From Opitutales bacterium (GTDB lineage Bacteria; Verrucomicrobiota; Verrucomicrobiia; Opitutales; PNEW01): 64,000 nucleotides of DNA. The position numbers and the translations under genes were made by a program. Shown piece after piece: positions 1 through 36,564 of the stretch; the first letter of the stretch is position 1, and every line of letters starts with the position of its first letter. The notes under the pieces were generated by a model, which saw only the letters and a program-made list of their open reading frames with translations, was not told the origin of the DNA and ran no database searches. The DNA is taken from NCBI GenBank assembly GCA_965197745.1, contig CBDANS010000007.1, forward strand, positions 2,048,001 to 2,112,000, read 5' to 3'.

Positions 1-28
1 CATAAGGGGTCATTCTCACCACTGCGAT

Positions 29-595
29 CTACAACAACGCGCCAGTCGCTTTAACCAGCGCATCTGACAGGACCTCGTTTCCAAATTCGGTCATGTGGCA
101 TCCGTCCTCAATGAGGCATTTCGTGTAGTCATTACTCATAATGACCTCATGTAGATCGTTCACCGGTATCCCTTCGACCTGCACGATCTCGAGCGCAGCA
201 TCGTTGTAATCCTTAAGCTCGGCATCTTCCCTGATCTGCCACTCGTTCATCGATTTATCCTGCTCGGACCTGTAAAGTGGCGTGGTGGTGGCCCAGATCA
301 TCTGTGTCTTCTCAAGCTCTTTGACTCTTGCAATTACCCGTTTGAGGGAGAGCCGGTACTGAGGAAGCAGAATTTGGTGGTCCCCGTCGGCCATCGGGAT
401 GCAATCGTGTATGCCAAAGTTAAGATGAACCACGTCCGGTTCTTGGTCGACTACCCATTCCTGAATATGATCAAGAACCCAGAGACTGTGTCGGCAATTC
501 TCCTTAGGCCCCCATACCTCAGCTTTCTTGCACTTCTTTGTCACCAGTGGTTGATACCCCTTCCGAATCGAGTCCCCGATTAACACGACTTTCAT
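29..595 (-). CDS. SGNH/GDSL hydrolase family protein
   Basis: GDSI block I, GIHD block III and DGCH block V; RBS AAGGAG upstream. Confidence 0.85.
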   Translation of the reverse strand: MKVVLIGDSIRKGYQPLVTKKCKKAEVWGPKENCRHSLWVLDHIQEWVVDQEPDVVHLNFGIHDCIPMADGDHQILLPQYRLSLKRVIARVKELEKTQMIWATTTPLYRSEQDKSMNEWQIREDAELKDYNDAALEIVQVEGIPVNDLHEVIMSNDYTKCLIEDGCHMTEFGNEVLSDALVKATGALL

Positions 596-614
596 TTCAT
601 CTCCTTGCTTTCAC

Positions 615-681
615 GCATAACAAATGATTCTAAAATTCTGTATATTGAGTAGGGGTATAATACTGTCAAGGTTGACAACTG
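615..681 (-). promoter_or_regulatory. Promoter plus attI-like module, copy 1
   Basis: Minus strand TTGACA (669-664), TATACA, then TTTTAGAATCATTT-GTTATGC just upstream of the SGNH gene; 36/50 ungapped identity to 6061-6110. Confidence 0.55.
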
Positions 682-1237
682 ATGTAACACAGCCTGATCC
701 CTTTACTCATTTTTCCTAAACGGGATAAACATATTTATCACCCAGAAATAAATGAATGAAATCTCTCATTCTGGTCCACCCCTCAGTATATGGTTTAACA
801 TATGTTTCCTTCCAATATACCCGACACATAAACTCTAAACAATACATGCATGTAATAGCTTCACTCATAAAACGATATTTATCGTTATATGAATCTAAAA
901 TCCCATAACCCTTTAAAAAAGAACAAAGATTTTCTTGGATGCAATTATTAGTCCAACCATCAATACACCATTGAAGTATTACACCTGCAATCTCCATCTG
1001 TGGTGCAGGGCCTGAACCGCAGGACGGCCAATCAATAACAGCACTAATATTACCATTCTTACCCAATAAAAAATTTAATAAATTACATACAAGATCTCCA
1101 TGAATTAATTTCGGCTCAAAATCATATTGGGCTAATTCATCTAATAATGCTAATATGCTAAAACTTTGCTTAGCAGATAACACCCCTTTGGATTCCAGCA
1201 ACTCAAAGTGATCGGACCCCGTATTTCGTATCAAATT

Positions 1238-2231
1238 TTAAGTGAGAGAACTACCGGGTGTTAATGGTTTTAGGATTGATGTATATGAGAGATCTTGGCG
1301 CAGTGAGGGCGTAGCCCGAACGCGGCCAAGAGCGGAAAGGAATGTGACAAACTCTTGTGGGCTTTTAAAGCCTAATCGACTGTGGGGATGTTCATTGTTA
1401 TAGGTCTGACGCCATTGTTCTATTAGCACTTGCGCTTCAGCCACGCTGAGCAACACTTCAGGGTTCAAACACTCATCGCGTAAGCGGTTGTGAAACGACT
1501 CGATGAAACCGTTTTGCCAGGGACTGCCCGGATCGATATATATCGCCTTGATCTTTTTGTCGGACAACCACTGCTGCACCTGATGAGCAATGAATGGCTT
1601 CGCATGTCGTCGCTTCGCTCCTCGGAACACTGCCGTTGTCACTGCGGATATAGCTAGGAACTCCCTCTTCATCGATGGTTTCGCTGAGTACCGAGAGAAC
1701 ATCGGTTGAGGTGAGCTGTCGAGCTACCCGGATGCGTAAACATTTACGCGTATATGTCTTCGCTTCGCTTGAGTGTCGTCGCTTTCAGCTCCTCGGTACA
1801 TCGATCAAGGTCATCATCTTTAGCATACCGCCATTGTCTGTACGATCATGGACAAAGTCCCAGGACCAGACGTGATTGCGACCGGTTGCTTTAGTAGGGA
1901 GCCCAGTAGAGATCCCCTGACGGTGTCTACGCTTTTTTGGTGGCTTTACCTGTAAGCCCGAAGAACGTCGCACTGCCTGTACAAATTTCCTGCTTGCCGC
2001 CCAACCTTCTTTCACCAGCAAGGCACGAATGCGCCGGTAACCGTAACGGGGATGTTCCCAGGACAAGGTCAAAATCCGCTCGGCCAATTGCTGAGCCTTC
2101 TTACTGGCCTGCTTGGGTCGGTAGCTGTACGTTGACCAACTGAGGCTGAGATAAGCACAAGCCCTCTAAAACGAGCACAGCCCCTTCTCAGCCGCATCTT
2201 TTACTGCTCGCTTCTTCTGCTTTGGGCTCAC
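1238..2231 (-). pseudogene. IS3 transposase OrfB (DDE), disrupted
   Basis: YGYRRI, WSWDF, SDNG and PGSPWQNGFIESFH motifs are spread over broken frames; two short insertions at 1596-1627 and 1756-1798. Confidence 0.9.
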
Positions 2232-2494
2232 CATTTTTTTGAGAGCGTTTCCTCCAACACCCGAAGCTTGAGCATTTGATCAGCGAGCATCTTCTTCAGC
2301 TCCGTATTCTCCTTTTCCAGCTCTTTAAATCGCTTCGCATCAGCCAGCTCCAAGTTGCCATACTTTTTGCCCCAGCGATAGAAGGTCTGTTCACTTAGGT
2401 TGTTGCCGTGGCAGACTTCCTGCACGGTTTTGCCCGTATCGGGCTGCCGCAGTATTGCTATGATCTGTTCTGTTGTATATCTTTTTCTTTTCAT
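2228..2494 (-). CDS. IS3 transposase OrfA (HTH)
   Basis: MKRKRYTTEQIIAIL...TFYRW...LEKENTELKKMLAD is typical of OrfA. Confidence 0.9.
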   Translation of the reverse strand: MKRKRYTTEQIIAILRQPDTGKTVQEVCHGNNLSEQTFYRWGKKYGNLELADAKRFKELEKENTELKKMLADQMLKLRVLEETLSKKW

Positions 2495-3159
2495 TGAGGT
2501 TATCTGTTTATCCCGATAACCTCTCTCTGTTAATGATACCATTTTTGGGGGTCACTCCAAAAGTCAATTCGAGTGATATAGGAACGCACAAAGTCTCCCC
2601 AATCTCCATATTCAAAACGAGAATCTTCTAAAATAAAACTATCCACCCAATTTTTGGGCCCTCCTCCAAAGCTATCAGTTGATATTTGATTAATCTGTGC
2701 AGCAATACGTCCAACATTCTCTAAAAAGTCCAAACCTTCATCCTTGTATTCTGGGTAGAAGTATTTAGTGCATTTTTCCATGCTAAAATACATCCCATGC
2801 AATCCAACCTCAGGGTTCTGGTCTGAACTCCATTCCATGCAGAAATAGCTAAATTCTTCACCACTTTCAAGCTTACCGGTTCCAATTATCTCTGGAAATA
2901 CAGATAAGACAGGAACATCTTTATGAACTATTTGGTGCGCCCAAAGTTGTTTACCAACAACACTCCGACAATAAGCAGAGGTGATTGTATGAGAGTCTGT
3001 ATAATTCTGATTAAGTTTTATTGCGTACTTATTACCCTTACTTTCTACAAAAACAACATCATTTATAGAACCAAAAACAATAGCTCCTTCGAATAATTCT
3101 GGATGCTTACTGGGTAGTTCTTTCTCAAAAAATCTTTTGAATTTACACATTATTTCTTG

Positions 3160-3216
3160 GTCGAATGTGCCGGTGAGCGACGGCGATCAGCCGTCCGCTC
3201 CACTGGCTGGTTATTA
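3160..3216 (-). other. attC-like integron cassette recombination site
   Basis: TAATAAC...GCCAGTG G AGCG GACGGC-TGATC-GCCGTC GCT CACCGGC...ATTCGAC; 57-bp imperfect hairpin with unpaired bases, immediately before the APH start. Confidence 0.6.
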
Positions 3217-3233
3217 GATCAATCCCGAAAGTC

Positions 3234-3301
3234 AAAAGGAGTCAGTCTTCGCCATTCGGCAAAAGTAATAAAAATGCCAAGATGCGAGACCTGACCCTTT
3301 T
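3234..3301. repeat. About 68-bp GGGTCAG...CTGAC(C/T)CC palindromic repeat (REP/REPIN-like)
   Basis: Its reverse complement is closely similar to 12964-13030. Confidence 0.8.
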
Positions 3302-3320
3302 GCAATTCGTAACTCATACT

Positions 3321-3380
3321 GCATAGCGCAAAGCACAGAGGCAGCAGTAAGGTAGTCACAATAGGTGCGTATTGTTATGC
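3321..3380 (-). other. Degenerate attC-like site
   Basis: GCATAAC 3 nt after the GNAT stop, ending in GCTATGC; 60 bp; outer arms pair but the centre pairs weakly. Confidence 0.5.
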
Positions 3381-3383
3381 ATT

Positions 3384-3794
3384 TTACTCAATGAATGCAC
3401 CCATGCTAAGGCGGTCCTCTTTTTTGAACCCCATAGCTTTATAGAAGGTTGCTACTTCAGTATTTGTAGAGCGTATTTGTAGATTAACTTTAATGCAGCC
3501 AAGTTCTTTTAAGGATTGCATTGCATATTTTACGAGCCGCGCACCGGCACCACTACGACGCTGCTCCTTTAGCACCGCAACTGCATACAGCCACCCACGA
3601 TGCCCATCATAGCCAGCCATGCAAGCACCGACTAATTTTCCTTCATGTTCTGCCACAAATATAAGATCGTCGACGGCAAGCTTTGCCTCAATGACAATTG
3701 AAGGTTCATTATGTGGAGGGTCATCGGGAAAGACAGTATTCCAAAGTTCAATCAATGAGCTTTTATCTGTGTCTTGATATTTCCGTATATTCAT
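3384..3794 (-). CDS. GNAT family acetyltransferase (YpeA-like), gene cassette
   Basis: MAGYDGHRGWLYAVAV, RRSGAG acetyl-CoA loop, KVNLQIR; ATG at 3794 with GAGG RBS. Confidence 0.9.
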   Translation of the reverse strand: MNIRKYQDTDKSSLIELWNTVFPDDPPHNEPSIVIEAKLAVDDLIFVAEHEGKLVGACMAGYDGHRGWLYAVAVLKEQRRSGAGARLVKYAMQSLKELGCIKVNLQIRSTNTEVATFYKAMGFKKEDRLSMGAFIE

Positions 3795-3808
3795 AACTTC
3801 CTCATGAT

Positions 3809-3867
3809 GCATAATGTCGTGGATCAGGCGCGACAATAAACTGACACCTGCATCCTGCTTGTTATGC
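3809..3867 (-). other. attC site (59 bp)
   Basis: GCATAAC AAGCA GGATGCAGG...CCTGATCC ACGAC ATTATGC directly after the stop of 3874-5175. Confidence 0.75.
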
Positions 3868-3873
3868 GCTTCC

Positions 3874-5175
3874 TTATGCGTAGGCTTGTGTAAGAAGCCT
3901 CATGTTTTCTTCTACTAGCACGTCATCAATATTCTCCGCAAGGATATACGCCCCCATCGCTCTAGCTACCCAGACCTCATACCCGCTGCGGTCCAGGGAC
4001 TCACGAGTAACGAAGTACCCGTTGCTCCCACAGGATGTACTGGCACAAAGCGTGTATTGGGCAGGACTGAGATCACGAAGACGAAGGACGGTTTCAGCAA
4101 ATGGCTCTCCAGGAAATGGCACTATCGCAACCGGGCCGAGGCGAAGAATGACCTGGAGATAGTTCTTTCCGGAGACTGGTGCGACCTGCTGAGCGCTGAC
4201 AACGGCCTGCCAATATTTATATTCACACATACCTTTTCCGTATTCGTTCCGGTGAGGTTCAGCCTCTGCAAGATTACGACTGGCTTCATCCTCCGAGGGC
4301 AAAGACCTGTAGGGTAATGGGTATGCTCCGGTCGTGATTCCCAGCTCCACGATACGGAATTCCTTAATCGCGCGAATGGCTCGCATCGCATCCATCCCCG
4401 CCCGAGTGCCGACCTCCTGCAACGCTGCTTGTCCGTCTCCGACAGCACCGAGGAAATTGCTCCGGGGAGCTATGTCGCCCACCGCACCGTTGACAAAAAG
4501 CACCGGAGCGCCAGTAAGGTCTTCGACCCGATCGATCATCACACCAGGCCAATCGCGGGAAATTGCCCTGCTCTTGCTTGTAAGAACGGTGGGATGTGCC
4601 CCGTAGTGAATCAGGGTTGCCAGAGGACCGTCTGCGCTCTGAAAGCAGACTACGGTCATTTCCGGATCGTAGATCCCCCAGCGGTTGTACCCCAACCCAA
4701 CTGAGTGGTCAGCCATAATCGCTCTGCGATTTACGCCTACATCACTTTCCGTCATCCCAAAACCGACCTGAATTTTCTTCAGGTTCTGACTGGCTTTCAC
4801 CGCCGCTTTGATGCTCTGGCTTACGACAAGATCGACATAGGTCTCGTCCTTATCGCACCATCCCCAACACGTCATGGTGCAGGGGGCGGAATGCGTCTGA
4901 ATAGTACAGACGACGATGCTGTCCGCGTGTATGCCGGTCTGTTCCTGAATACCCTGCCGAATCGCTTCTACATCGGCGTCTTCAAGAATGCAGATCGTCA
5001 AACTGATCAGGACTGCTGTCGTCTCTCCTTGTTTCAAGACAAGTGCGTTTGCCTGCAATGGGTCGCGGACAGACTCCGCTTTCCGGTCTGGATCAGGATA
5101 ACCCATCAGCAGAAAACCGAGTTCGGGCGTGATGTCGGTTCGAGCGAAGCCGCCGAAAAGTTGTAGCTCTTTCAT
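3874..5175 (-). CDS. Neutral/alkaline ceramidase N-terminal-like metallohydrolase, gene cassette
   Basis: GFARTDITP, QTHSAP, YGAHPT, ISRDWPG, GAVGDI and PGEPF motifs; likely start MKELQL at 5175. Confidence 0.7.
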   Translation of the reverse strand: MKELQLFGGFARTDITPELGFLLMGYPDPDRKAESVRDPLQANALVLKQGETTAVLISLTICILEDADVEAIRQGIQEQTGIHADSIVVCTIQTHSAPCTMTCWGWCDKDETYVDLVVSQSIKAAVKASQNLKKIQVGFGMTESDVGVNRRAIMADHSVGLGYNRWGIYDPEMTVVCFQSADGPLATLIHYGAHPTVLTSKSRAISRDWPGVMIDRVEDLTGAPVLFVNGAVGDIAPRSNFLGAVGDGQAALQEVGTRAGMDAMRAIRAIKEFRIVELGITTGAYPLPYRSLPSEDEASRNLAEAEPHRNEYGKGMCEYKYWQAVVSAQQVAPVSGKNYLQVILRLGPVAIVPFPGEPFAETVLRLRDLSPAQYTLCASTSCGSNGYFVTRESLDRSGYEVWVARAMGAYILAENIDDVLVEENMRLLTQAYA

Positions 5176-5648
5176 ATTATTCTTTCTGATTGTATAACGC
5201 CTCCAGAAGGTTGCTCCCGCGCAGCACGCCGAAACAGCCAGGCCGATCCAACAAACAGCGCGACGAAGAACCCCGTCAGGATTAAGATATCCCGCGGCCA
5301 GATCGGCCCCGTAGAGCCCCACCCCGCGATCAGCGCGATTGCACCGACCAACGCATGAGCGAGCGCCGTCGCGAACAACGTGCGTGTCATTCCCTGTGGC
5401 TGAAAACGCGCGATGATGGCACCGAAGAAACCGACGGCGAGCACCCCATAATACATCATGTTGGCGTCGTCGTCCGCAGTCCCGATGATGCCAACAGCAC
5501 CGTTCACCCAGAAGAGGAGGAATGCTGCCGTAAGTGCAAGGCCGACGGCGGATTTATAAGCGGTATTGTCAGGCTTCCTCGCTTTAAGGACCATGAAGAC
5601 GACGATGAACGCTGCCGCGAGCACGATAAGGGGCAAGAATTTAAGCAT
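5172..5648 (-). CDS. Hypothetical integral membrane protein (about 5 TM), gene cassette
   Basis: Several hydrophobic helices and WVNGAVGIIG; follows the attC at 5701-5763. Confidence 0.7.
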   Translation of the reverse strand: MLKFLPLIVLAAAFIVVFMVLKARKPDNTAYKSAVGLALTAAFLLFWVNGAVGIIGTADDDANMMYYGVLAVGFFGAIIARFQPQGMTRTLFATALAHALVGAIALIAGWGSTGPIWPRDILILTGFFVALFVGSAWLFRRAAREQPSGGVIQSERII

Positions 5649-5700
5649 TTTGCCTATTTGTTCTTTGATTTCTGTGAGTTAGCGACACCTTAAGATAACG

Positions 5701-5763
5701 GTATAACGTCGCGGTTAACTTACCGGCGCGTAAGCGACGGTTAAGTTGTACCGTTTGTTAGAC
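5701..5763 (-). other. attC site (63 bp)
   Basis: GTCTAAC AAA CGGTACAACTTA ACCG...CGG TAAGTTAACCG CGAC GTTATAC: canonical RYYYAAC end, near-canonical GTTRRRY end and paired inner boxes. Confidence 0.85.
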
Positions 5764-5777
5764 AATCGTTGCCCGAG

Positions 5778-6026
5778 TTATTCGAGTGAAATCACAACTT
5801 TCTCATTCTTCTTGTGTTCCTCGACCTCTACCAGAGTCCCATTGATCTCCGGATTCATCGAAAGCTTGGTGAGCTCGTCGAGATCAATCCCATTGCTTTG
5901 AAGTGCTGCAGCCGCCTGCTTCGGAATTAGTTTGGATGCGACCTCGAGGACGCTACCGGGAATAGTGACAGTCGTCTTCGGTTGCGCTTCGCCAACCTTG
6001 AAAACTCGAATCTTCAATTCAGCCAT
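5778..6026 (-). CDS. Small hypothetical protein, gene cassette
   Basis: 82 aa, strong RBS GGAAAGGAG, followed by an attC. Confidence 0.75.
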   Translation of the reverse strand: MAELKIRVFKVGEAQPKTTVTIPGSVLEVASKLIPKQAAAALQSNGIDLDELTKLSMNPEINGTLVEVEEHKKNEKVVISLE

Positions 6027-6054
6027 GATTCTCTCCTTTCCGCATATCTTTTCT

Positions 6055-6112
6055 ATCTATCAAATGATTCTAAAGTTCATTATATTCGCGTATGGGAAAA
6101 TGTTGTCAAGGT
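6055..6112 (-). promoter_or_regulatory. Promoter plus attI-like module, copy 2
   Basis: TTGACA (6109-6104), 19-nt spacer, TATAAT (6084-6079), then CTTTAGAATCATTT-GATAGAT; homologous to 615-681. Confidence 0.6.
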
Positions 6113-6167
6113 GGCAAAAGGGGTCAGGTTATTAATGCTAAAAATGAGGCACGTCGTTAGGTGTTGC

Positions 6168-6485
6168 CTACACTGTCTGGTTGGGATTTTGTTTCATCGG
6201 ATCGAAATCGCTATCGCTATGGGGATCGATCTCATTGGTTCTGTAGATTGCGCGCTCATCTTCACCAGAATAGCCCCGCGCGATCTCAAAATACCTTCTT
6301 CGGTCCGGTTCAGATGTTTTTCCATTACCTTCCGCAATGTTCAGAGGAATCGACTGGCTTGCCCGTAGCCACTGGTCGCGGGCGTGACGATGAACGCCAT
6401 TCAGCCTTTCGGACCCTTCATAAACCCAGCTGACATAGTCGATGGAAAGACCGTAAACGTCCAGTTTCTCGTGTCCCAATGTCAT
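6168..6485 (-). pseudogene. Four-helix-bundle (23S rRNA IVS protein-like) gene, C-terminally deleted cassette
   Basis: HEKLDVY...RDQWLRASQSIPLNIAEG...YFEIARG, then similarity is lost; ends in a half attC TCCCAAC CAGACAGTG. Confidence 0.75.
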
Positions 6486-6534
6486 CTTAGTTCGATTCCG
6501 ATAACGATCCCGATTTCGATTTGGATTGTTTTAC

Positions 6535-6603
6535 TCACAACAGGTAATTCGAAATTTCTGAATAATTCGAGTATCGGGATAATGTTTTCGAAGTTAACAA
6601 CTG
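6535..6603 (-). promoter_or_regulatory. Promoter plus attI-like module, copy 3 (degenerate)
   Basis: CAGAAATTTCGAATTACCT-GTTGTGA; 15/20 identity to 621-640 and a shared GTT(G/A)ACAACTG end. Confidence 0.45.
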
Positions 6604-6658
6604 GGAGCAAAATAAATAGAAGCTGACCCATTTTGACATTACAAATGGCTGTCCCTGC

Positions 6659-7354
6659 TCACTCGGCAGGGAAGAAATGAGAGACAATGCCGATCCGCGG
6701 CTGATAGGTCTGGTTACCGGACGAACCGTGAATGCATAAGCTGTGATGAAATGCCGCGTCGCCTGGCGCTAAGCGGGCATACACTACCTTGTCCGAAGTG
6801 GGATTCGATACCTCGAAGGCACGGTGAATTTCATACTTGCCAATAGCATTTGTATGTTGATTAAGACCCGTCCGGTGGCTACCTGTCACATATCCCACAG
6901 AACCGTTACTCGGATTGCACGCCGTCAACGCGATCCAACAGGTAATGCCAGCTTCACTCGCACTTTGACCTTGCCAATAGTGACCGTCCTGGTGCCATTG
7001 CACCCTGGCGCTGTATTGTGCCGGTTTGGCAATCACCTGCCCGTAGGAAAACCGCAACGGATAACCTGTCAGATACTCAGCTAATTGCTGTGCCCGGCGA
7101 CGGTAGGGATGCTCAGCTAATTTCGGGATCGGACCCTCGTCGCTGATACTGATCTGCTGTTGAAGGCCGTGTTTAATATCCGTATTCCCTTCCTCTCCGA
7201 AACCCAAATGCCCAAGTTCACGATCCAAGGCGGGGCGCAACAGTTCTAAGAGTTCAATCGCTTCATCATGACTGAGAAGCTTTTGGTAAAATACAAAACC
7301 ATTGTCCAGATACCGTTGGCGATGGGCTGGATCAGGATTGGCAACCGGGCTCAT
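6659..7354 (-). CDS. Phytanoyl-CoA dioxygenase (PhyH) family 2OG-Fe(II) oxygenase
   Basis: WHQD, WIAL, GSH, HGS..N and R motifs. Confidence 0.9.
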   Translation of the reverse strand: MSPVANPDPAHRQRYLDNGFVFYQKLLSHDEAIELLELLRPALDRELGHLGFGEEGNTDIKHGLQQQISISDEGPIPKLAEHPYRRRAQQLAEYLTGYPLRFSYGQVIAKPAQYSARVQWHQDGHYWQGQSASEAGITCWIALTACNPSNGSVGYVTGSHRTGLNQHTNAIGKYEIHRAFEVSNPTSDKVVYARLAPGDAAFHHSLCIHGSSGNQTYQPRIGIVSHFFPAE

Positions 7355-7407
7355 TTTTCAAGTAATCATTTAAATACTAAAGGTGTCATAAACTTCCAAT
7401 CATCCCT

Positions 7408-8877
7408 TTAGAGTGGTTCGGTCCTGCGAAATCCTGTAGGGGGTTTTGGAACGTCTGGCCAGGTATCTCCAGTCTTCTTTAACCAATCCGAGAGAGCGGA
7501 CCGCATCTCCTCGATTTGCTCCTGGCAGTGTGGATCATCAATCAGGTTGTTCCTCTCATGCGGATCCTCGACAAGGTTGTAGAATTCATTAATCCCATTC
7601 TGGGATTCGATGTATTTATAATTTCTCGTTCGCCACATTCGCAATGGTGTTACCGGATCTTCCGCCCAGCTGCAGGAATGATATTCTCCCGCTAAACCCT
7701 CTCTCACGGGTTGTGAATCCCCTTCGATGAGCGGGGCGATAGATACACCGTGAAGCTCCTCCGGGGGTTCAACGCCACAGTAATTCAGAATCGTCGGCAT
7801 AAGGTCGACATGAGAGACCAGTTCCGGAGAGCGCCCCGGTTTATTATCCCCACCTGGAGGAACAATGATCAGGGGGATGTGAATCAGCTCCTCAAACATC
7901 AACGCACTTTTGTAGATAAAACCGTGGCTTCCCAATAACTCTCCGTGATCCGAAGTAAATATAATAAGCGTATTATCAAACAGGTCTTTCTGGTGGAGTG
8001 CCGCCATTAATCGTCCGGTTAAAAAATCAACAAAACTGACTTCGCCTAAATAGCCGGCCCACATTTGTCGTAACTGGTTGTCATTCCATTGTTCAACAGA
8101 TCGCAAATGACCTTCCAGCAGGCGCTCCTTGAGACAATTCGCGGTATAAGTATCTCTAAGGGATTCAGGAAGGTTCATGTCATCGTAGTTGTACATGCTG
8201 ATAAAAGGCTCCGGGCAGACCCAGGGTGGATGGGGTTCATGGGTGCTCCACACCAGCATAAATGGTTGATCCAATGAAGAAACATGATGGATGAACTCTA
8301 CAGCGCGATCACACATCAGCGATGCAGGGTGATCGGCAAGTCCCAACCGGGACGGCCCGAAGCAAATCGTCTCGTCATACTTATCCTTGTCGGGATCAAT
8401 TCCACCTTGATGACGACCGGTGACCTCCTCACCAATTCTCTTTGCATGTTGAATGATTTCATTCTCTTCCGATCGGTCCACATCAAAATTAAAATGCGCG
8501 GCTTTAAAGTCAGAGAAACCTCTCCGGTTGTATCCGGTACCCATATGCCACTTTCCCGTATAACCGCAGAAATAGCCCGCTGGTTTGAGGTAGTCAGCAA
8601 TGAGTTTCAGGTCTTTACGCATCAACATCTGATCAACACCGGGTCTCATTTGATGATTCGCAACCATACCGTGGGTGTGCGGATAGAGACCCGAGAAAAT
8701 GGAAGCCCTCGAGGGTGTGCAGATGGGCGTTGTGCAGAAAGCATTTTCGAAGAGCATTCCATTCGCGGCCAACCCATCGATGTTCGGAGTCGAGATGTGC
8801 TCGCGGCCCGTGCATCCAAGTGTGTCATACCGCTGTTCATCCGTCACAATGAGAAGCACGTTCGGGCGAGATGTCAT
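7408..8877 (-). CDS. Formylglycine-dependent sulfatase
   Basis: RPNVLLIVTDEQR, CTPSR, GKWH and FTSDHG motifs. Confidence 0.95.
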   Translation of the reverse strand: MTSRPNVLLIVTDEQRYDTLGCTGREHISTPNIDGLAANGMLFENAFCTTPICTPSRASIFSGLYPHTHGMVANHQMRPGVDQMLMRKDLKLIADYLKPAGYFCGYTGKWHMGTGYNRRGFSDFKAAHFNFDVDRSEENEIIQHAKRIGEEVTGRHQGGIDPDKDKYDETICFGPSRLGLADHPASLMCDRAVEFIHHVSSLDQPFMLVWSTHEPHPPWVCPEPFISMYNYDDMNLPESLRDTYTANCLKERLLEGHLRSVEQWNDNQLRQMWAGYLGEVSFVDFLTGRLMAALHQKDLFDNTLIIFTSDHGELLGSHGFIYKSALMFEELIHIPLIIVPPGGDNKPGRSPELVSHVDLMPTILNYCGVEPPEELHGVSIAPLIEGDSQPVREGLAGEYHSCSWAEDPVTPLRMWRTRNYKYIESQNGINEFYNLVEDPHERNNLIDDPHCQEQIEEMRSALSDWLKKTGDTWPDVPKPPTGFRRTEPL

Positions 8878-8946
8878 TTCAATTGCAAATTGATGTGGAT
8901 GTCGTCCCGCAACCGCGGGACTCGGTACGGAATGAGAAAAGGTGGC

Positions 8947-9098
8947 AAAATGGGTCAGGTTGTGTATTTATAGATTTTCAGGATTCGAAATTAAATCGGA
9001 CAGTTGAATCAACAATAAATTACTAATTTCGTTAGTATTCAAATACAGATTGAAAACGTATTCTAAGTTGAATTTATATATACACAGCCTGACCTCTT
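8947..9098. repeat. GGGTCAGG(T/C)TGTGTA inverted-repeat pair enclosing an AT-rich spacer
   Basis: GGGTCAGGTTGTGTA...TACACAGCCTGACC; related half-copies at about 687-703, 6117-6131 and 6621-6634. Confidence 0.65.
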
Positions 9099-9196
9099 CT
9101 AAAATTCTCGCATGCATTGGCAGATTCTCTTTCTTTTGATCAACATATCGGGTGCTTAATCTCTTTCCCCCCTTCTATCTCTTCCATGCTCATATA

Positions 9197-10349
9197 TCAG
9201 CTTTCCACACCAAAGAACCCGTACCCTGGCTTCACATGCGCCCGCGCGACTTCATCGTTCAACTCGATGCCGAGTCCGGGACCGGTGGGGACAACGAACC
9301 TACCCTCCTGAATCAGCGGTTCCGGGGAGCTTACCAGGTTCCACCGCCAGGGAACCTGGTCCCAGTGGTAGGGCAGTTCCATGGTGTGAAGATTGCGGAC
9401 CGATGCGCATACATGCGCCGAGGCGGCCATACCGAGCGGGGATGTGATATTGTGTGCCGCGAAGGGCATTGTAGTAGAGGTCCGCCAGATCCGCAATTTT
9501 CTTGGCCTCTAGCATCCCGCCCGTGGCCGAGACATCCACATGCAGCATGTCGCATGCCTGCTCCTGAATAAGCCGCCGAAATCCATCCCGGCGATGTACC
9601 CATTCTCCGGTGCATATCGGTATGGATGTTGGGGCGGTGACTTTCCCCATGGCCTCGATATTTTCCGGTGGTACCGGATCCTCCAGGAACATCAGGTTGA
9701 ACGGCTTCAAACATCCGGCCAGAAGTGCGGCATCTCGGACGTTATACAACCCGTGACAGTCGATGCAGATATCGACCCCGTCCCCAACCTCCTCACGCAC
9801 GGCGGCTACCAGCGCGGTCATTTTATCCAATTCCGCCAGACTCAATCCCCGATTTACCGAATCGTGGCTGTATTCATCTGCGGCATGGTCGATATCGAAC
9901 TTGATAGCTTGATACCCGTCCGCCACACCCTCACGGGCGCGCGCCGCCCATGTTTCTGGAGTATTGACACCGTCACGGCCCTGTCCCACGTCCGCATACA
10001 TCCGGATGCTATCCCGGTATTTCCCACCCAGGAGCTGATAGACCGGAACGCCAATTGCCTTGCCGGCAATATCCCATAACGCCGTCTCTACCCCTCCGAT
10101 GGCGCCTAGCATAATCCCGGCGGTAGATTGGCCGATGGTCTTGGCCACCATGTGAGTATAGAGCGGTTCTACGTTCAGCGGGTCTTTGCCCAGAATCAGT
10201 GGCTTCAGCCGTTTGACCACTGCATCATTGATACCCTCGCCGGGATGCGCCTCCCCGATGCCGGTAACGCCTGCATCCGTCTGGATGCGTACATAATTCC
10301 AGTCCTTGTAACCCTTGAGTGTGGTCGTTTGTAGATCTGTGATGATCAT
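9197..10349 (-). pseudogene. Mandelate racemase/muconate-lactonizing (enolase superfamily) enzyme with a +1 frameshift
   Basis: ETALWDIAGK, KFD, IDCH, EDP and TGE motifs; an extra base near 9470 separates ...ADLYY from MPFAAHN...PTGPGLGIELN. Confidence 0.85.
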
Positions 10350-10694
10350 CTTTCAAGTCCTCTTATTGCAGCTCTTTAAGCCTCAGTGATGACCTGCTCA
10401 TCCCACAGATTTGCTGTATCCACCCTTCCATTTTCTATGACGGATTTTCTACCTTTGTGGGGTTAGACTTAATGTCAACATCTTCCAAGGTATATATCGT
10501 CGCGATATTATTGTGTTTAAGTTTTGCAGCTACCTCTGTTTCTCGCGAAGTGCAGTGTCCATGAGTTTTACAGCTTACTGCAGTAGACATCCTTGTAAAA
10601 GAGATACGGGTCGACGCAGAATAAAACTGGTTTACAAACTGGTTGATAAGGCGTACATTTTCCGTATGAAGTCAGAATAAAAAGGGGTCAGGCT

Positions 10695-12268
10695 GGAATG
10701 GCGTTAAGATAAGGGATAGAATGAGTGCAATAGATGCTTGTACAGGGACCGTTGGAGAGCTACCCTAACGAGCATGCAAAAACAAAACTTAACTCGTTAT
10801 TTTCCAGGATTTAATCAGGTCCTGTTCGGTCGTGCTCCCCGAACAGCCCTTGCACGGATGGAGGGTAAGCTGGTAGAAATACGGCGGTCAAGTCTTTCCG
10901 AGCTATCGGATATCTTCGGGCAGTGGGTGCCGCAAAAGTATTTACACCGGAAGCCTCGAGGGGCTAACAGCCGGCGGAGATTGTTCAGCCAAAACGTGAC
11001 CTTCTGGGCATTTTTGTTCCAAGTGCTCTCACCACGGACTGCCTGCCGGGAAGTGGTGCGCAAGCTCCAGAGCTATTGCAGCATGAAGGGGCTGAAGTTG
11101 GCTAAAGGAACGGCCTCGGCCTACTGTCAGGCGAGGCAACGGCTGTTGGTGCAAGACCTGCACGGGATCCATGAAGCGATCAGTGAAGAGGTGGCCGGGA
11201 GAGTGACCGACGATCAACGGTGGAAAGGTCACGAGGTAAAAGTGGTCGACGGCACGGGTATCGCCACCGCCGATACGCCGTGCTTGCAGAGGTGTTACCC
11301 ACAGCCTTCGCAGCAACGAAGCGGCTGCGGCTTTCCGGTGATGAAGCTGGTGGGCTGTTTTTCTTTAGCCAGTGGGGCGCTTTTACACTGGATGGAGTCC
11401 TCACTAAGGCATCATGACAGTGTGCTGTTGCGGGGCATGATCGGATTTTTTCAAAAGGGTGATGTGGTCCTTGCCGACCGGGGATTTTGCTCTTACCTCA
11501 ATATTGCCCTGCTTAAAGGCCGCGGTGCTGAAGCGGTCATGCGTTTGCATCAGCAACGAAGAAGCGACTTTCGTCAGGGCAGGTCCTTGGGTAGGTATGA
11601 CCGGCTGATCATGTGGAAGAAGCCGCAAAATGTCTTCGGCTTCAGTCGCGAGCAGTGGCGGCAAATCCCTGATGAGATCCCCGTACGGCTGGTGAAGATT
11701 TTCATTTTCATCAAAGGTTTCCGCGCCCATAGCGTAGACCTCGTGACTACCTTGAGCGATCCTCACCAATACTCCCACCACGATCTCGGAGAATTATACT
11801 ATCGGCGCTGGGCAGTGGAGCTTTACTTTCGCCACATCAAAACCACCATGGGGATGGAGATCCTGCGCTCTCGCTCGGTCGCTCTCGTGCGCAAAGAGAT
11901 TGCGATGTTTGCCATCGCCTACAATCTCTCATCCGCGCTCTTTTGCAGCAGCTGCCAGTGCCTTCCACCGCGACCTCTCCCGGCTAAGCTTCAAGGGGGC
12001 TGTTGACACCCTCCGCCAATATCAAAGTGCGCTCGCGGCCACCCGGTTTAATCCCAGAGCCCAACGATCTGTCATTGACGAGATGATACACCTCATTGCC
12101 CTCGAATCGGTCCCCCTACGTCCCTTCCGATACGAACCAAGAGTCCTCAAACGTAGACCTATACCTTTCCAACGATTGACTCATCCACGAGCCATGATGA
12201 CCGTCTCTGCTTCACGAAAAAACAAAGGCTTTTATCATCCTAAACCACCCTTATCTTAACGCCATTCG
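10695..12268 (+). mobile_element. IS4-family insertion sequence
   Basis: 20-bp perfect IR GAATGGCGTTAAGATAAGGG; target duplication GGTCAGGCT at 10686-10694 and 12269-12277 (9-10 bp). Confidence 0.93.
10774..12259 (+). pseudogene. IS4 DDE transposase with frameshifts near 11925-11955
   Basis: VVDGT, LADRGF and YYRRWAVELYFRHIK (YREK) motifs; the C-terminal LSFKG...EPRVLKRRP lies in another frame. Confidence 0.88.
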
Positions 12269-13159: not shown

Positions 13160-15382
13160 ATGAATAATAAATTACTGAGCACCGTAATTTTATTGATTGG
13201 ATTAACGGTGTTTTTATCCGCACAACCTGAATCACTGAATACATTTTTTGATTTTGAAGATGATACAGCGACAGGGACTGATTTCACTCTGGGCGTTGCC
13301 CCTTTTACTATCAGGGTTATAGGGTTTACCCTGGAAACGGTGGACAACCCGGCCCTCGCTCATTCAGGAAACAAAGCGTTGGTTCTTGAAGCGGGTCAGG
13401 AAGGGAAAATTATTTTTGAAAGAGGTGTCAATTTACTCCAGTTTTATACTGCTGAAACTACCGGTGGTGGCCGATTAGAGCTTAGAGATATAATTCGACG
13501 AACTTTAAGGATGAATGGAGTTGTAAAAGGTCTCCCTGCTAACATCAGTCCCGGCGCTAATCCACCGCTTCAAAGTTTCGTCGCCTTCAGCGGGGATATT
13601 TTGGATGCTACTGATCTTACCTTTACGAGCGGTGTCATTGAAATTAAAATGATCAATGTAAATGAACGCGCTTCCATAGACGATCTTGGTTTTACCTATG
13701 TTGTTGGTCCACCCAACAATACCCTTTTTGAAAATTTCGAGGATGAGAGTATGAGGCCAGAATTTAATAGCCCACCTAATACGCATGTAAATTTCACTCT
13801 CGGTGTGCCTCCTTACACCGCGTCTTTTACCGGGGGCATTGCGTCCAACTCAGGGGGACAATTTTTTAATCATACTATTCCCGGCGGCGCAGTCTGGAGA
13901 GTTGAGGATTCATCTTTTGTGGGCGGGGATGGCATAGGAATTATTAATTTTGAGACCCCAGTCGCTAATCTAGAATTTTACGCTGCAGTGTTCCTTGAGG
14001 AAGATGGAGAAATTCAAATTTTCGACACTAATGATAACCTGCTCACTTCAACCCAAAATATACCCCTTAATATTAGTCACTTATTTGATTCACCCTTTGA
14101 TTATTTTTCTTTTAATGCTGCAGAATTAGGAGCTCTCGAGGGAATTGGGAAATTACATTATCTCAACTTGGATAAAGTCTCTTTCCAAGGAAACGTTCTG
14201 CATAATGTTATTGATGATTTTGGATTTACCCCAGTCGGTGCTCCTGGAAGTGGTTCCGAGGGCCCGCCCCCGTTAACTGGTCCTACTATTACGACCCAGC
14301 CCGCGAGCCAGGAAGTGCAGTCAGGCTCAGCCATTGTATTATCGGTTGTCGCCAGCGGTGACGATCTTACTTACCAGTGGTTTACCGGCAACAGCGGTGA
14401 CACCGCTGCTCCAGTCACCGGTGCGACTGGAAGCACGCTGGACACGGGCGCTCTCAACGTAAGTACAAATTACTGGGTGCAGATTACAAACGCTGGAGGC
14501 ACCGCTGACAGCGATACCGCGGTCGTCACGGTCGCGGCCCCCTCCGTGCCTCTTGTCCTCGACGGCATGGGTGATATTGCCGGTGAAAACATCCAGCATC
14601 CTAATGGCAATGTCTTCGACCAGATTTTACTCACGGGTGAATCCATACAACTGCAGGCCAGACCGGGACAGATTACAAGGGTCTCCTTCATGGATGAGAC
14701 CGAAGACATTGTTCAGGTTGAATTCTCTGGCGCAGGGACCTTTACCGTTACCCTGGACCCTGCCACTTTCCTGCCCCCGGCCATCCCCCCACGCTACAAC
14801 CAGGCAGTTGAGTATGTGACGGGTAAACCGGGCGTGGTCATCGACGGAGCTGACTCCAGTACCTTTTTCAGTATCTTCACCGTGGGTTCAATCAACGCCG
14901 TGAACCAGGCGCTCTTCCCCGAAGGACAGGTCTATGATGCCCAGGCAGACGTGACCCTCGTTGAAGTGGTCAATTCCACGGGGATAGGAGGAATGCAGTT
15001 ATCGAACACCGTGTTCAGTGGAAGTACGGGTAAAGTTGGCGTGGATGCGAGAGGGGTCCCGATCGCGGTACGGCTTACGGTAGGTGACATCGATGCCAGT
15101 GGGGATGCGGTACCGAATCTGTTATTTGGATCGGGTTCATTTACGGTGCCCGCAGGCAACCCCGGGTTACGCATCACTGGAGGAGACCTGGCACAGACAA
15201 ACGGAGCTTCAGTAGTGGTCGCTGAGAGCGGATCAACGACACCCGGGTTTGAAACCTTGATTACGCAGAACAACTTCAAGTCCGACAACACGCCTCAACC
15301 GACACAAAATATTGCTGCGACCTTCGCCAATGAGAATGGTGATGCGATTACGGTTACGACCGAAGAGTTGACGATCGAATGA
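13160..15382 (+). CDS. Secreted/surface protein, paralog 1: signal peptide, two related beta-rich domains, Pro linker, Ig-like domain and conserved C-terminal domain
   Basis: Signal peptide; repeated IDD(L/F)GFT domain ends; PTITTQP...LTYQW...YWVQITN Ig motif; tail shared with the next two genes. Confidence 0.8.
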   Translation: MNNKLLSTVILLIGLTVFLSAQPESLNTFFDFEDDTATGTDFTLGVAPFTIRVIGFTLETVDNPALAHSGNKALVLEAGQEGKIIFERGVNLLQFYTAETTGGGRLELRDIIRRTLRMNGVVKGLPANISPGANPPLQSFVAFSGDILDATDLTFTSGVIEIKMINVNERASIDDLGFTYVVGPPNNTLFENFEDESMRPEFNSPPNTHVNFTLGVPPYTASFTGGIASNSGGQFFNHTIPGGAVWRVEDSSFVGGDGIGIINFETPVANLEFYAAVFLEEDGEIQIFDTNDNLLTSTQNIPLNISHLFDSPFDYFSFNAAELGALEGIGKLHYLNLDKVSFQGNVLHNVIDDFGFTPVGAPGSGSEGPPPLTGPTITTQPASQEVQSGSAIVLSVVASGDDLTYQWFTGNSGDTAAPVTGATGSTLDTGALNVSTNYWVQITNAGGTADSDTAVVTVAAPSVPLVLDGMGDIAGENIQHPNGNVFDQILLTGESIQLQARPGQITRVSFMDETEDIVQVEFSGAGTFTVTLDPATFLPPAIPPRYNQAVEYVTGKPGVVIDGADSSTFFSIFTVGSINAVNQALFPEGQVYDAQADVTLVEVVNSTGIGGMQLSNTVFSGSTGKVGVDARGVPIAVRLTVGDIDASGDAVPNLLFGSGSFTVPAGNPGLRITGGDLAQTNGASVVVAESGSTTPGFETLITQNNFKSDNTPQPTQNIAATFANENGDAITVTTEELTIE

Positions 15383-15420
15383 TCTCTTCGAGAAGTGTTA
15401 AGTTTGAAGTGTTAGGTATT

Positions 15421-15528
15421 AGGTGGAACGGGCTGCCTGCCAGCCATAGCCTTGACGTAGGTTGGTCCCTAGCACGCTTCTTTACTTATGGACATTCTCA
15501 AACGCGGTAGGGACACTGCGTTCCACCT
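15421..15528. repeat. AGGTGGA(A/G)CGGGCTG...CGTTCCACCT REP-doublet-like repeat with a nested insert
   Basis: Copies at 18056-18195, 21083-21160 and 28880-28955; partial copies at about 18631-18695, 23720-23775, 31110-31157 and 32192-32261. Confidence 0.8.
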
Positions 15529-15787
15529 TTTATGTAATATTAAAAGCGACTATATACTGATGCCTCTAAACGGTGAACCTTGAACCGTGAACCTTCTTCC
15601 CAACACGCGCGTTAGCGCTCTTCCCTTTTTGACTTTATGACATTTTGACCCGCGCCTCACCCCGCTTCACCTAAAACCAAACAGAGCTACTGCATTTTAC
15701 TGTTTACTTGTCACTGGTCACTGTTCACTACAATCTCCCTATCTTCTATTTCAATCTCATACATTTAACGCCAATAAAAAGCTCACC

Positions 15788-18016: not shown

Positions 18017-18274
18017 TCTCTTCGAGATGTGTTAGGTTTTAAGTTTTAGGTGTTAAGGTAGAGCGGGCTGCCTGACAGCTATAGTCCCGCCACCGCGGGA
18101 CGACGGCTGTTCCCAGCACACTTCTTTACTTGTGGCATTCTCAAACGCGGTAGGGACACGATTCGACTGAGCTCGTCGCAGGCTGCGTTCCACCCTTTAT
18201 GTCATGTTGTTCTTTTTAGTAAGGCATGAAGCTATAGGGCAATCCATTGCGGGTATGATGTTTTACTTCTATAT

Positions 18275-18403
18275 GTCATTGCGAGAAGCAACGCGACGAA
18301 GCAATCCAGGCGACTAACGTTATGTTACCGACATTCCCCTGGAATGGAAGATGTCGGACTTCGCTCTCGGTAGTCGCGGTCGGCTACGCCTTCTTCCAAT
18401 GAC
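18275..18403. repeat. GTCATTGCGAG...GAAGCAATCCAG-type palindromic repeat with a nested mini-element
   Basis: GTCATTG...CAATGAC ends; related copy at about 51198-51275. Confidence 0.65.
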
Positions 18404-18802
18404 AAGGTAAGATACAAAACGTAATCAGATTACATTTCACAATATGCGTAGACGGATCCAGCTCTCTTCACCAGTCACTGTTCACTGATCCCTGCCTGTC
18501 CTGAGTGCAGTCGATGGGAACCTTCTTCCCAACACTGGCGTTAGTGCTCTTCCCTTTTTGACTTTTTGACCCGCGTCTCACCCCGCTTCGCCTAAAACTA
18601 AACAGAGCTACTGCATTTTACTGTTCACTGATCCCCCACTGCGTTTGAGAATGTAGCAATAGAAAAAAGCGCGCTAGGGACACCCCGCTCCACCTAAAAC
18701 TTAACTGCATTTTACAGTTTACTGTTTACTGTTCACTGTTCACTTCTATCTCTCGATTTTATATTTCAATCACATCCATTTAACGCCTATAAAATACCCC
18801 CC

Positions 18803-36515: not shown

Positions 36516-36564
36516 TTTCAATTTATACACTTAGACAGCTGTTATAGATCGGGAGAAAGTCACT

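Follow-up and report, generated by a model that had tools for sequence, protein, structure and literature searches.

What are the short non-coding repeats that stand ahead of genes near the start of this stretch of an Opitutales genome, and by what means were they brought there? Within the window (the whole 64,000-nt stretch that was analyzed), three copies can be read from the sequence, all on the minus strand and each directly upstream of a gene (Table 1). A preliminary description had located them at 615-681, 6055-6112, and 6535-6603 on that strand, and copies are indeed present there. Its ungapped identity of 36/50 between copies 1 and 2 was reproduced, as were the TTGACA-19 nt-TATACA/TATAAT arrangement of these two copies, the ending GAAT(C/T)A(T/C)(T/C)TG(T/A)T (correct in 3/3 copies), and the position directly before a gene: the same-strand genes that follow copies 1, 2, and 3 lie at 29-595, 5778-6026, and 6168-6485, respectively. 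Copy 3 is 31/50 and 25/50 identical to the other two when aligned without gaps, low values that reflect its small indels; its subtype is the one found with the PF05635 unit, and its subtype-specific 5' extension reaches the stop codon of the gene at 6659-7354. Copy 1 ends 23 nt upstream of the GDSL/SGNH start codon, and an orthologous copy and gene are found together in a related genome (G001). Ahead of copy 2 lies ...CCTGACCCCTTTT, the tail end of a palindromic element. Here, the core of a copy begins at the -35-like hexamer and ends with the final T of TTGTT or TTGAT.

Table 1. Positions of the repeat copies and neighboring features in the window
Feature	Position	Strand	Details
Module copy 1	601..700	-	Core 669..619, TTGACA to TTGTT; E 5.8e-21 in profile search
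Copy 1, 5' extension	up to GGGATCAGGC motif near 693-701
GDSL/SGNH hydrolase gene (cargo of copy 1)	29..595	-	PF13472
Module copy 2	6041..6124	-	Core 6109..6059, TTGAT end; E 7.5e-19 in profile search
Module copy 3	6523..6657	-	Core 6592..6539; E 1.7e-20 in profile search
Probable operon behind copy 2	3384..6026	-	Short intergenic gaps, no module between genes
Operon gene, 82-aa protein	5778-6026	-
Operon gene, 158-aa membrane protein	5172-5648	-
Operon gene, ceramidase-like protein	3874-5172	-
Operon gene, GNAT acetyltransferase	3384-3836	-
PF05635 unit ("23S rRNA intervening sequence protein," four-helix bundle)	6140..6538	-	PF05635, E 6e-16
Imperfect hairpin	5701..5763	.	z -1.9 and -2.3; RYYYAAC/GTTRRRY-like ends in the right orientation
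Dispersed palindromic element, terminator-like or MITE-like	3229..3307	.	GGGGTCAGG-type ends; 6 further places in the genome
IS3-family insertion	1205..2559	-	Interrupts a phosphotransferase (APH) gene, leaving the parts 716-1234 and 2530-3150
PhyH dioxygenase gene	6659-7354	-
Sulfatase gene	7408-8877	-

Searching the 4.45-Mb genome (G000) with a profile built from the three window copies alone recovered 17 more copies at E ≤ 1e-6, with the next match at E 0.31, which places the repeat family far beyond chance. At this threshold the family numbers 20 copies, rising to 21 after iteration. A covariance model using sequence only detected the module in 4/41 genomes, namely, G000 and all three others of its family (G001 to G003), and in 0/37 genomes from other families of the order. 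Among 185,579 species genomes, an exact 22-nt pattern matched 10 times, in 7 loci of a single record, "MAG: Opitutales bacterium"; a further 8 single matches occurred elsewhere, where about 4 are estimated to arise by chance. Full modules were present in 7/19 metagenome loci. Most G000 copies (17/20) head their own same-strand open reading frame (ORF) of at least 60 aa, mostly starting 0 to 60 nt downstream of TTGTT, and the remaining 3 head decayed PF05635 remnants. Since the gene upstream of some copies is on the opposite strand (G000 C7:1110088; G1arr 48632), the module goes with the downstream rather than the upstream gene. The cargo spans GDSL, PF05635, Gfo/Idh/MocA, HIT plus cupin, HAD, methyltransferase, sulfatase, amidohydrolase, PhyH, SDR, and DUF2784 proteins, as well as several without an assigned family, and copies of identical subtype can head different cargo (L032_1493/L032_2164, L020_887/L020_1500, and L026_1174/L026_1510). 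The expectation of further copies before different genes was thus confirmed in 51 distinct copies with unrelated genes behind them, and the claim of a multicopy, promoter-like module, strand-locked to its downstream gene, is supported. We conclude that the module is promoter-like DNA of one small marine Opitutales group and stands ahead of about 20 unrelated accessory genes per genome.

The 3' boundary of the module is sharp. Identity falls from 0.85 over the final 5 nt to 0.35 over the 5 nt that follow and 0.25 to 0.30 further on (51 copies; 522/528 pairs, those with unrelated cargo), so that similarity ends right after GTT, as had been predicted. The position after GTT most often holds a purine. 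Copies match colinearly over 51 to 54 nt, fall into subtypes with shared indels, and carry subtype-specific 5' extensions of 20 to 45 nt. The most conserved parts are the spacer just after the -35 hexamer (..CATTATCC..) and the approximately 20 nt that follow the -10 block, which include the highly conserved AGAAYTTTAGAAT, a short direct AGAAY repeat; many copies have an 8+8 palindrome across the -35 hexamer. The three window copies do not fold into a hairpin (z of +0.92, +0.04, and +0.18), and Rfam models gave no match at E ≤ 1 in window positions 1 to 12000, arguing against a known RNA family such as a riboswitch or leader.

TTGACA or a one-off variant of it occupies a fixed place in the module, and the least extended copies start at that place. 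The same organism has TTGACA-like hexamers 37 to 50 nt before the mature 5' end in 9/44 tRNA genes, followed by weak -10 elements; the GAATAT-type hexamer of the module, at 16 to 18 nt, is similar. A sigma-70 consensus scan (spacing of 16 to 18 nt; at least 4/6 matches per hexamer) called 0/3 window copies: the distance from TTGACA to TATACA is 19 to 21 nt, outside the scan range, and the hexamer at 16 to 18 nt matches at 3/6 positions. The contigs of the only RNA run come from a 90 to 95% relative. By its sequence, then, the module is a putative promoter; a plain promoter leaves the conserved spacer, the approximately 20 nt after the -10 block, and the sharp 3' end unaccounted for. These blocks could instead be the operator and promoter of a regulon, that is, sites for a lineage-specific transcription factor conserved by selection on binding and not by mobility. 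Such a regulon would suit the blocky conservation, highest in the two motifs given above, the palindrome over the -35 hexamer, and the retention of orthologous copies by G000 and G001. However, the long colinearity, the indel subtypes, and the 5' extensions show that whole copies descend from a common ancestor, not that sites converged, chimeric copies (see below) reveal exchange among them, and no candidate regulator was found. We consider this explanation quite unlikely, and it is compatible with, rather than opposed to, the one we favor, a promoter-plus-leader module moved by recombination.

The preliminary description had proposed that the copies are multiplied attI platforms, loaded in trans by an integron integrase (IntI), with attC-ended cassettes downstream. 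The stop of similarity after GTT, the attC-like hairpin at 5701-5763, and the one-strand array of accessory genes agree with this proposal. A search with TIGR02249, however, found no integron integrase in 4/4 module-bearing genomes, one of them a single-contig chromosome; the best matches scored 80 bits in G000 (92% complete) and 83 to 84 bits in G001 to G003, against a cutoff of 265 bits, and were Xer-like frames of 312 to 319 aa. The described absence of an accompanying integrase therefore holds, and with no IntI in any of these genomes, loading in trans lacks its enzyme. Nor did a crude home-made scan reveal an attC family: attC-like hairpins were not enriched, with 1 candidate in the 26-kb array versus 6 in 200 kb of background. 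The hairpin at 5701-5763, to which one of the two claimed R'' boxes belongs, is unique in the genome, matching only itself, and its halves have different histories, as homology to G001 breaks mid-hairpin at 5741 and the left half alone is common to both (G001 has a 243-aa gene there). The second supposed R'' box, GTTGGGA (6179-6185), lies within the last codons of the 6168-6485 gene, and the putative attC after that gene (6113-6200) shows no fold (z +0.66) and belongs to a repeated gene unit. The 7-mer R'' box matches (5/7 and 6/7) can be confirmed, yet agreement of this degree is expected by chance when short words are searched for over about 100 nt. Copies elsewhere are not followed by attC-ended genes, an outcome that the preliminary description had itself named as counting against its reading. 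Copies also occur behind opposite-strand genes, and chimeras switch type at several positions, with no single crossover point.

We therefore regard an attI function as extremely unlikely: the multicopy, promoter-like, integrase-free module stands, and everything specific to integrons falls. Nor does the region qualify as a CALIN, which the cited excerpt describes as two or more attC sites in a stretch of about 4 kb with no intI nearby (PMC4889954), given the lone candidate from the crude scan of the 26-kb array. The likeness to an integron lies in a promoter-bearing site before co-oriented, unrelated accessory genes, in reshuffled content, and in the end after GTT. In contrast, the module region lacks intI and attC hairpins, has many "docks" instead of one, and shows scattered exchange points. 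Integron cassettes, according to the same excerpt, rarely carry promoters (PMC4889954).

Chimeric copies bear most directly on how the module moves. Among 21 copies followed by the PF05635 leader, 14 carry the subtype marks at all three diagnostic columns, 2 of these having a foreign 5' half as judged by eye. The other 7 comprise 2 that switch between the second and third marks, 1 between the first and second, 3 after the last, and 1 that is truncated. PF05635-subtype marks also appear in 4/30 copies heading other cargo. Because type switches fall at at least 4 positions, they point to homologous recombination or gene conversion rather than one fixed crossover. Three of the 8 chimeras switch in the last approximately 8 nt or at the very end, which exceeds an even spread (rough binomial of about 0.02, with uncertain assignments) and could hint at a preferred crossover there. 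On a larger scale, the arrays of G000, G001, and G002 have common genes 88 to 92% identical but differ in gene order and content, and 4/10 synteny block ends fall in or at modules. Several between-genome breakpoints lie away from modules, 5 to 25 nt upstream of start codons (window 3812 and 5653); thus, modules are not the sole joints. DNA contigs also contain population variants at module junctions, including one run X6 contig without exactly 6534-6657.

The end-biased switches raise the possibility of a recombination dock, in which a promoter-bearing joint of an integron-like cassette system independent of integrase serves a site-specific recombinase of unrecognized type with exchange at or next to ...TTGTT, and the PF05635 unit is a selfish cassette aimed at this point. 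Several observations agree with such a dock: the 3' boundary is identical and sharp in 51/51 copies, a purine mostly follows it, the PF05635 leader begins at the same point after at least 5 module subtypes, the population variant that drops a module has one end 5 nt past GTT, and about 21/51 copies head a PF05635 unit, mostly in decayed form, as expected of a proliferating element. However, the remaining chimeras switch at three further places within the module, and PF05635 insertions sit between two resident-subtype copies with mosaic patches, a pattern that fits homology-driven exchange. Breakpoints upstream of a 255-aa gene lie about 45 nt past the module, and the module shows none of the inverted repeats or hairpins that recombinase sites typically have. 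Visual inspection of the array ORFs in G000, G001, G002, and 7 metagenome loci revealed no recombinase gene (the Pfam scan of array ORFs covered G000). We judge the dock unlikely. Equally doubtful is its extension to a gene-cassette system without an integron, with the promoter module as the joint, an unrecognized enzyme favoring ...TTGTT, and the PF05635 unit parasitizing the docks; if that were true, each newly docked accessory gene would be expressed at once.

The reading we favor, with a probability of about 0.6, is that of a lineage-specific, dispersed promoter-plus-leader module, shuffled by homologous recombination or gene conversion, that is neither an attI site nor part of an integron or CALIN. 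Such a module has a core of about 51 to 54 nt and a subtype-specific 5' extension of up to about 100 nt, and it heads accessory genes or short operons in the one-strand arrays of this small Opitutales family. RNA polymerase would use the near-consensus -35 hexamer with the A/T-rich, -10-like block 16 to 18 nt downstream, and transcription would start within the module. The best-conserved last approximately 20 nt (...AGAAYTTTAGAAT..TTGTT) may then be the first transcribed bases or an operator, and each cargo gene would supply its own ribosome-binding site 10 to 60 nt further on. Because copies are 60 to 90% alike and co-oriented, they could act as portable stretches of homology, exchange between which would duplicate, delete, move, or re-head the intervening genes. 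Recombination and gene conversion between copies, the presumed moving force, would explain both the reshuffled arrays of relatives and the chimeric modules. The minimal mobile elements of Neisseria reportedly exchange whole genes through border homology with no dedicated recombinase. Both systems would swap whole-gene units between related genomes in this way, but in Neisseria the homology is that of conserved genes flanking one locus, whereas here it would be a portable, repeated promoter module within an array. Passages of PMC1797815 cite Saunders and Snyder (2002) for the Neisseria elements.

Dispersed repeats near the modules suggest another origin: the module could be what is left of a transposable element, for instance a MITE or a single IS end, with an outward promoter, like Correia elements. 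The sequence GGGGTCAGGC.GTGTATTTAT opens several copies and is also the inverted end of the MITE-like element found complete at G000 C7:1118603-1118728; the G001 and G002 arrays contain MITEs with related ends, and the array harbors an IS3-family element. However, the module itself has neither terminal inverted repeats nor a fold (z scores above), a transposase gene follows 0 copies, and every copy points the same way as the gene after it, unlike the outcome of random transposition. The MITE end is found in a subset of copies, and the opposite MITE end adjoins others; therefore, MITE ends are neighbors and not parts of the module. A remnant of this kind is very unlikely. Correia elements and other promoter-carrying MITEs are described in the cited excerpts as short dispersed repeats, often upstream of genes (PMC3575422 and PMC1797815). 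The module resembles them as a short dispersed repeat able to supply promoters, but Correia elements have long inverted ends and insert in either orientation, whereas the module lacks inverted ends and a fold and is always co-oriented. Halves of the palindromic elements typified at 3229..3307 adjoin many modules, and 136-nt relatives with inverted ends of about 30 nt occur in G001 and G002.

Putative mobile promoters are reportedly the subject of work by Matus-Garcia, Nijveen, and van Passel from 2012. The cited excerpt presents them as homologous non-coding sequences ahead of non-homologous genes in one genome (PMC3575422), under the criterion of at least 80% identity over at least 50 nt upstream of unrelated coding sequence. 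In G000, 32/180 pairs with unrelated downstream sequence are at least 40/50 identical, and 14/20 copies have at least one such partner. By this operational definition the module counts as a putative mobile promoter, with promoter activity itself assigned by likeness. Both are homologous non-coding DNA upstream of non-homologous genes with no known way of moving. The families in the excerpt are mostly pairs, taken from -150 to -50 of the start codon, whereas the module has 20 to 21 copies per genome at about -10 to -110. The module further differs in its clustering in one-strand accessory-gene arrays, its confinement to one Opitutales family, its single fixed 3' end, and its visibly chimeric copies.

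The PF05635 unit behind copy 3 consists of a leader (6486-6538) that contains ATCG-type short repeats, the ORF at 6168-6485, and a tail; both full and decayed copies of the unit are numerous. In the predicted minimum-free-energy fold, the leader and the 3' end of the ORF form a long-range stem, with a whole-fold z of only -1.45. Because PF05635 resembles Avd, a diversity-generating retroelement was considered and rejected, as reverse transcriptase PF00078 had 0 matches in G000 (92% complete). The genes behind copy 2 (3384..6026) are probably cotranscribed. Upstream of the variable part, the PhyH-sulfatase block (6659..8877) is conserved and syntenic in G001 and G002. The 716-1234 fragment of the interrupted phosphotransferase gene matches PF01636. 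The IS3-family insertion that interrupts it is polymorphic in the population, since in an X6 contig position 1204 runs directly into 2560, and the insertion has a word depth 20 to 200 times that of its flanks.

The three promoter-like modules that the preliminary description had placed on the minus strand of the window were found at its positions, and the ungapped 36/50 identity between copies 1 and 2, the three terminal sequences, and the TTGACA-19 nt-TATACA/TATAAT arrangement in copies 1 and 2 were all reproduced. A profile built from these three copies alone detected 17 further copies at E ≤ 1e-6 in the 4.45-Mb genome of the window (G000), followed by an empty gap up to the next match at E 0.31; iteration brought the total to 21 copies. 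Four of the further copies lie just left of the window, where its minus-strand gene row continues. A sequence-only covariance model from 15 copies was searched in 41 genomes (G000 and 40 relatives) and matched in 4, namely, G000 and 3/3 same-family genomes (21, 12, and 2 matches), and in 0/37 genomes from other families of the order (one per family). One genome for each of 185,579 species was scanned with an exact 22-nt pattern that retrieves only 19/51 known copies. The matches comprised 10 in 7 loci, all in one record named "MAG: Opitutales bacterium," and 8 single ones in unrelated taxa (chance expectation estimated at ∼4). In a metagenome collection, 7/19 matching loci held the full module. 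Based on the profile, covariance-model, pattern, and metagenome results, the module is real, multicopy, and restricted to a narrow Opitutales lineage. Literature searches found no published description of it.

The 51 distinct copies (80 matches before duplicates of overlapping loci were removed) were aligned from the 3′ end, which is identical in position across all of them. In the 522 of 528 copy pairs whose next 60 nt are unrelated, pairwise identity was 0.62 to 0.85 over the last 30 nt of the module and 0.85 in its last 5 nt, dropping to 0.35 in the next 5 nt and to 0.25 to 0.30 further on. The 5′ end is graded: in the shortest copies, the −35-like hexamer lies a few bases from this end, and subfamilies have an additional 20 to 45 nt in common on this side. 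Conservation is blocky, with the hexamer followed by ..CATTATCC.., an A/T-rich block, AGAAYTTTAGAAT, and ..TTGTT. Single-strand folding of the three window copies revealed no structure (z of +0.92, +0.04, and +0.18), and an Rfam scan of window positions 1 to 12000, module included, matched no family.

Features of the window and related loci (window coordinates unless a contig, C6 or C7 of G000, or a locus is named; G1arr, G001 gene array; L007 and L009, G000 loci)
Feature	Position	Strand	Remark
Module copy 1 core	669..619	-	−35-like hexamer to last base of TTGTT/TTGAT
Module copy 2 core	6109..6059	-	−35-like hexamer to last base of TTGTT/TTGAT
Module copy 3 core	6592..6539	-	−35-like hexamer to last base of TTGTT/TTGAT
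GDSL hydrolase gene	29-595	-	directly behind module copy 1
82-aa protein gene	5778-6026	-	directly behind module copy 2
PF05635 four-helix-bundle protein gene	6168-6485	-	directly behind module copy 3
PF05635 unit	6140-6538	-	
PF05635 units, other	C6:753553-754116; C7:2044680-2045262; C7:1605083-1605300		
IS3-family element	1205-2559		
APH-family phosphotransferase gene	716-1234 + 2530-3150		split by IS3-family element
Palindromic elements	3229-3307; C7:26938-27017; C7:1342821-1342889; C7:2060268-2061031; C7:1118603-1118728		dispersed
GTGAGAG.GTTT-type repeat	L009 (C7:1104001-1122000) near 3898, 12556, 13176; gap 1107023-1107163		
IS4-like transposase gene	10738-12006	+	
IS4-like transposase gene	L007 6743-7993	-	
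IS4-like transposase gene	G1arr 33807-35348		
Tandem triplication	14339-20300		units ∼2.6-3.0 kb
Tandem triplication	36548-41486		units ∼1.64 kb
102-nt tandem repeats	45429-45768		three to four repeats

Behind 17/20 G000 copies lies a same-strand open reading frame (ORF) of at least 60 aa belonging to that copy; the remaining 3 stand before remnants of decayed PF05635 units, which are repeated blocks of leader, ORF, and tail. Most start codons fall 0 to 60 nt past TTGTT, every gene has a ribosome-binding site of its own, and the genes are unrelated by family (in G000: GDSL, PF05635, two Gfo/Idh/MocA oxidoreductases, HIT+cupin, HAD, methyltransferase, sulfatase, amidohydrolase, PhyH, SDR, DUF2784, and several without a family). 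The expectation of the preliminary description that copies elsewhere would precede different genes, with similarity ending right after GTT, was thus borne out (51 copies, unrelated cargo). Some copies are preceded by an opposite-strand gene, indicating that the module belongs with the downstream gene and not with the end of the preceding one. The PF05635 gene ("23S rRNA intervening sequence protein," Avd-like) occurs as a unit headed by ∼21/51 modules, with many units in loci L041 to L043 and most unit copies decayed to the stem alone. CGAT-type repeats at the ORF 3′ end have their inverse in the unit leader, which is built of short ATCG-type repeats; in the predicted RNA, a long stem therefore surrounds the ORF, as in rRNA intervening sequences.

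The three copies had been interpreted as attI-like integron docks loaded in trans, with attC-ended cassettes downstream. This reading fails, with neither IntI nor an attC family present. A TIGR02249 search found no integron integrase in 4/4 module-bearing genomes (including one single-contig chromosome); the best matches, in Xer-like frames of 312 to 319 aa, reached 80 to 84 bits versus a cutoff of 265. The stretch claimed as attC behind the PF05635 gene does not fold (z of +0.66), and the proposed R″ box there lies within the gene's final codons; gene and tail are together a repeated unit. The attC proposed at 5701-5763 does fold into an imperfect hairpin whose ends are attC-like (z of −1.9 and −2.3) but is unique in the genome. 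G001, a same-family relative, has only its left half, the right half being replaced by a 243-aa gene (G1arr 41634-42380, corresponding to 88 nt in G000 at window 5653-5741). Since the break between the two genomes falls mid-hairpin, the two halves have different histories. A home-made crude scan, distinct from IntegronFinder, counted 1 attC-like hairpin in the 26-kb array versus 6 in 200 kb elsewhere. We also rejected 136-nt "attC-like" matches in G001 and G002, which are symmetric MITE-like elements with ∼30-nt inverted ends that are absent from G000. By the definitions in PMC4889954, the window region qualifies neither as an integron nor as a CALIN. The module region lacks every testable feature of integron membership.

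The window gene row is syntenic with rows of G001 and G002 at 88 to 92% identity, with differences in order and content. The GDSL gene and a 255-aa gene have exchanged places, GNAT and APH genes in G000 take the place of a 123-aa gene in G001 and G002, and the PF05635 unit is variably present. Modules contain or adjoin 4 of 10 synteny block ends; other ends lie 5 to 25 nt before start codons. In three pairs of copies, one module subtype is followed by different cargo, with the switch right after TTGTT (L032_1493/L032_2164, L020_887/L020_1500, and L026_1174/L026_1510; locus and copy number). Three columns are diagnostic for the PF05635-linked subtype (two rows were reassigned by eye). Among the 21 copies heading a PF05635 leader, 14 carry all three marks (two of these with a foreign 5′ half by eye), 2 switch between marks 2 and 3, 1 switches between marks 1 and 2, 3 switch after mark 3, and 1 is truncated; PF05635-subtype marks are also carried by 4/30 copies heading other cargo. 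Because the chimeras switch at four or more places and contain mosaic patches, one fixed crossover is disfavored. Homologous recombination and gene conversion between module repeats would yield such scattered switch points and mosaic patches. A possible preference for the very end of the module is hinted at by the three switches located there. DNA contigs of other sequencing runs contain live variants: one lacks module 3, with 6534-6657 replaced by two bases, and others join 5196 to 6492 and 6557 to 3812. In another, the IS3-family element is missing and 1204 is joined to 2560; since a contig of run X6 has this joint, the uninterrupted APH-family gene is present in the population.

From its sequence, we infer that the module is a promoter. 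A near-consensus −35 hexamer is fixed in position, at the very point where the shortest copies start; the distance to the start codon is suitable, and the orientation rule holds. In 9/44 tRNA genes of the organism, TTGACA-like hexamers lie 37 to 50 nt before the mature end, followed by weak −10s much like the module's hexamer at 16 to 18 nt. Against a promoter, the TTGACA-to-TATACA spacing is 19 to 21 nt, and the best conserved part of the module lies past the −10 block. A sigma-70 consensus scan called none of the three window copies; the same scan returned 5 sites in 9.5 kb versus 12.1 expected in shuffles and is thus of no diagnostic value here. The sole RNA run (X1; share 0.05) gave contigs only of a 90 to 95% relative and is uninformative on start, strand, and level. 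Readings of the conserved blocks as ECF-type, sigma-54, or sigma-32 elements were rejected by eye against consensus sequences, the second element being missing or wrongly spaced. Nor did inspection by eye reveal the 11-6-11 imperfect palindrome of a Xer/dif-like site, as in Acinetobacter pdif modules, and the Verrucomicrobia LexA box was not seen in the module. Conservation of the spacer and of the 3′ block points to a possible additional role, for instance that of an operator or leader.

Among known systems, the module most resembles the putative mobile promoters of Matus-Garcia, Nijveen, and van Passel, similar noncoding sequences that precede unrelated genes and whose mode of movement is described as unknown in PMC3575422. 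The threshold of that type is reached by 32/180 G000 module pairs; the module differs in family size, clustering in one-strand accessory arrays, fixed 3′ end, and visible chimeras. It is not a MITE, since it has no inverted ends, and the idea of a diversity-generating retroelement (DGR) was dropped, as no reverse transcriptase gene was found in G000 (92% complete). Because a promoter-bearing joint precedes shuffled genes, the module is somewhat like an integron platform in its working. If the module is a portable promoter that also serves as a recombination joint, it would accomplish what integrons do in a simple, enzyme-free way: accessory genes standing in rows could be acquired, lost, put in a new order, and immediately expressed. 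The loosely defined "mobile promoters" class would then gain an example whose mechanism can be seen, in chimeras and in reshuffled orthologous arrays. A practical point for annotation is that small enzyme genes arrayed on one strand with repeats at their junctions need not be integrons. Narrow in range, the module family may for now be regarded as a well-documented lead.

Several other repeats were observed. Word depth over the IS3-family element is 20 to 200 times that of its flanks. The dispersed palindromic elements, with AAAAGGGGTCAGGC...GCCTGACCCCTTTT ends, resemble two-way terminators or MITEs; many modules have half of such an element next to them, and the 136-nt elements are their relatives. 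A separate strand-locked repeat (GTGAGAG.GTTT ... GGGTATA ... TACCCC hairpin) is positioned after genes and is absent from window positions 1 to 12000 and from L007 (the 14 kb left of the window). Copies of a single IS4-like transposase gene, a family name resting on a reading of the protein and not on a Pfam call, flank or sit within the G000 and G001 arrays at ∼92% identity. The units of the two large tandem triplications are 74 to 88% alike, presumably representing paralogous genes in a row, and the 102-nt tandem repeats are 71 to 79% alike.
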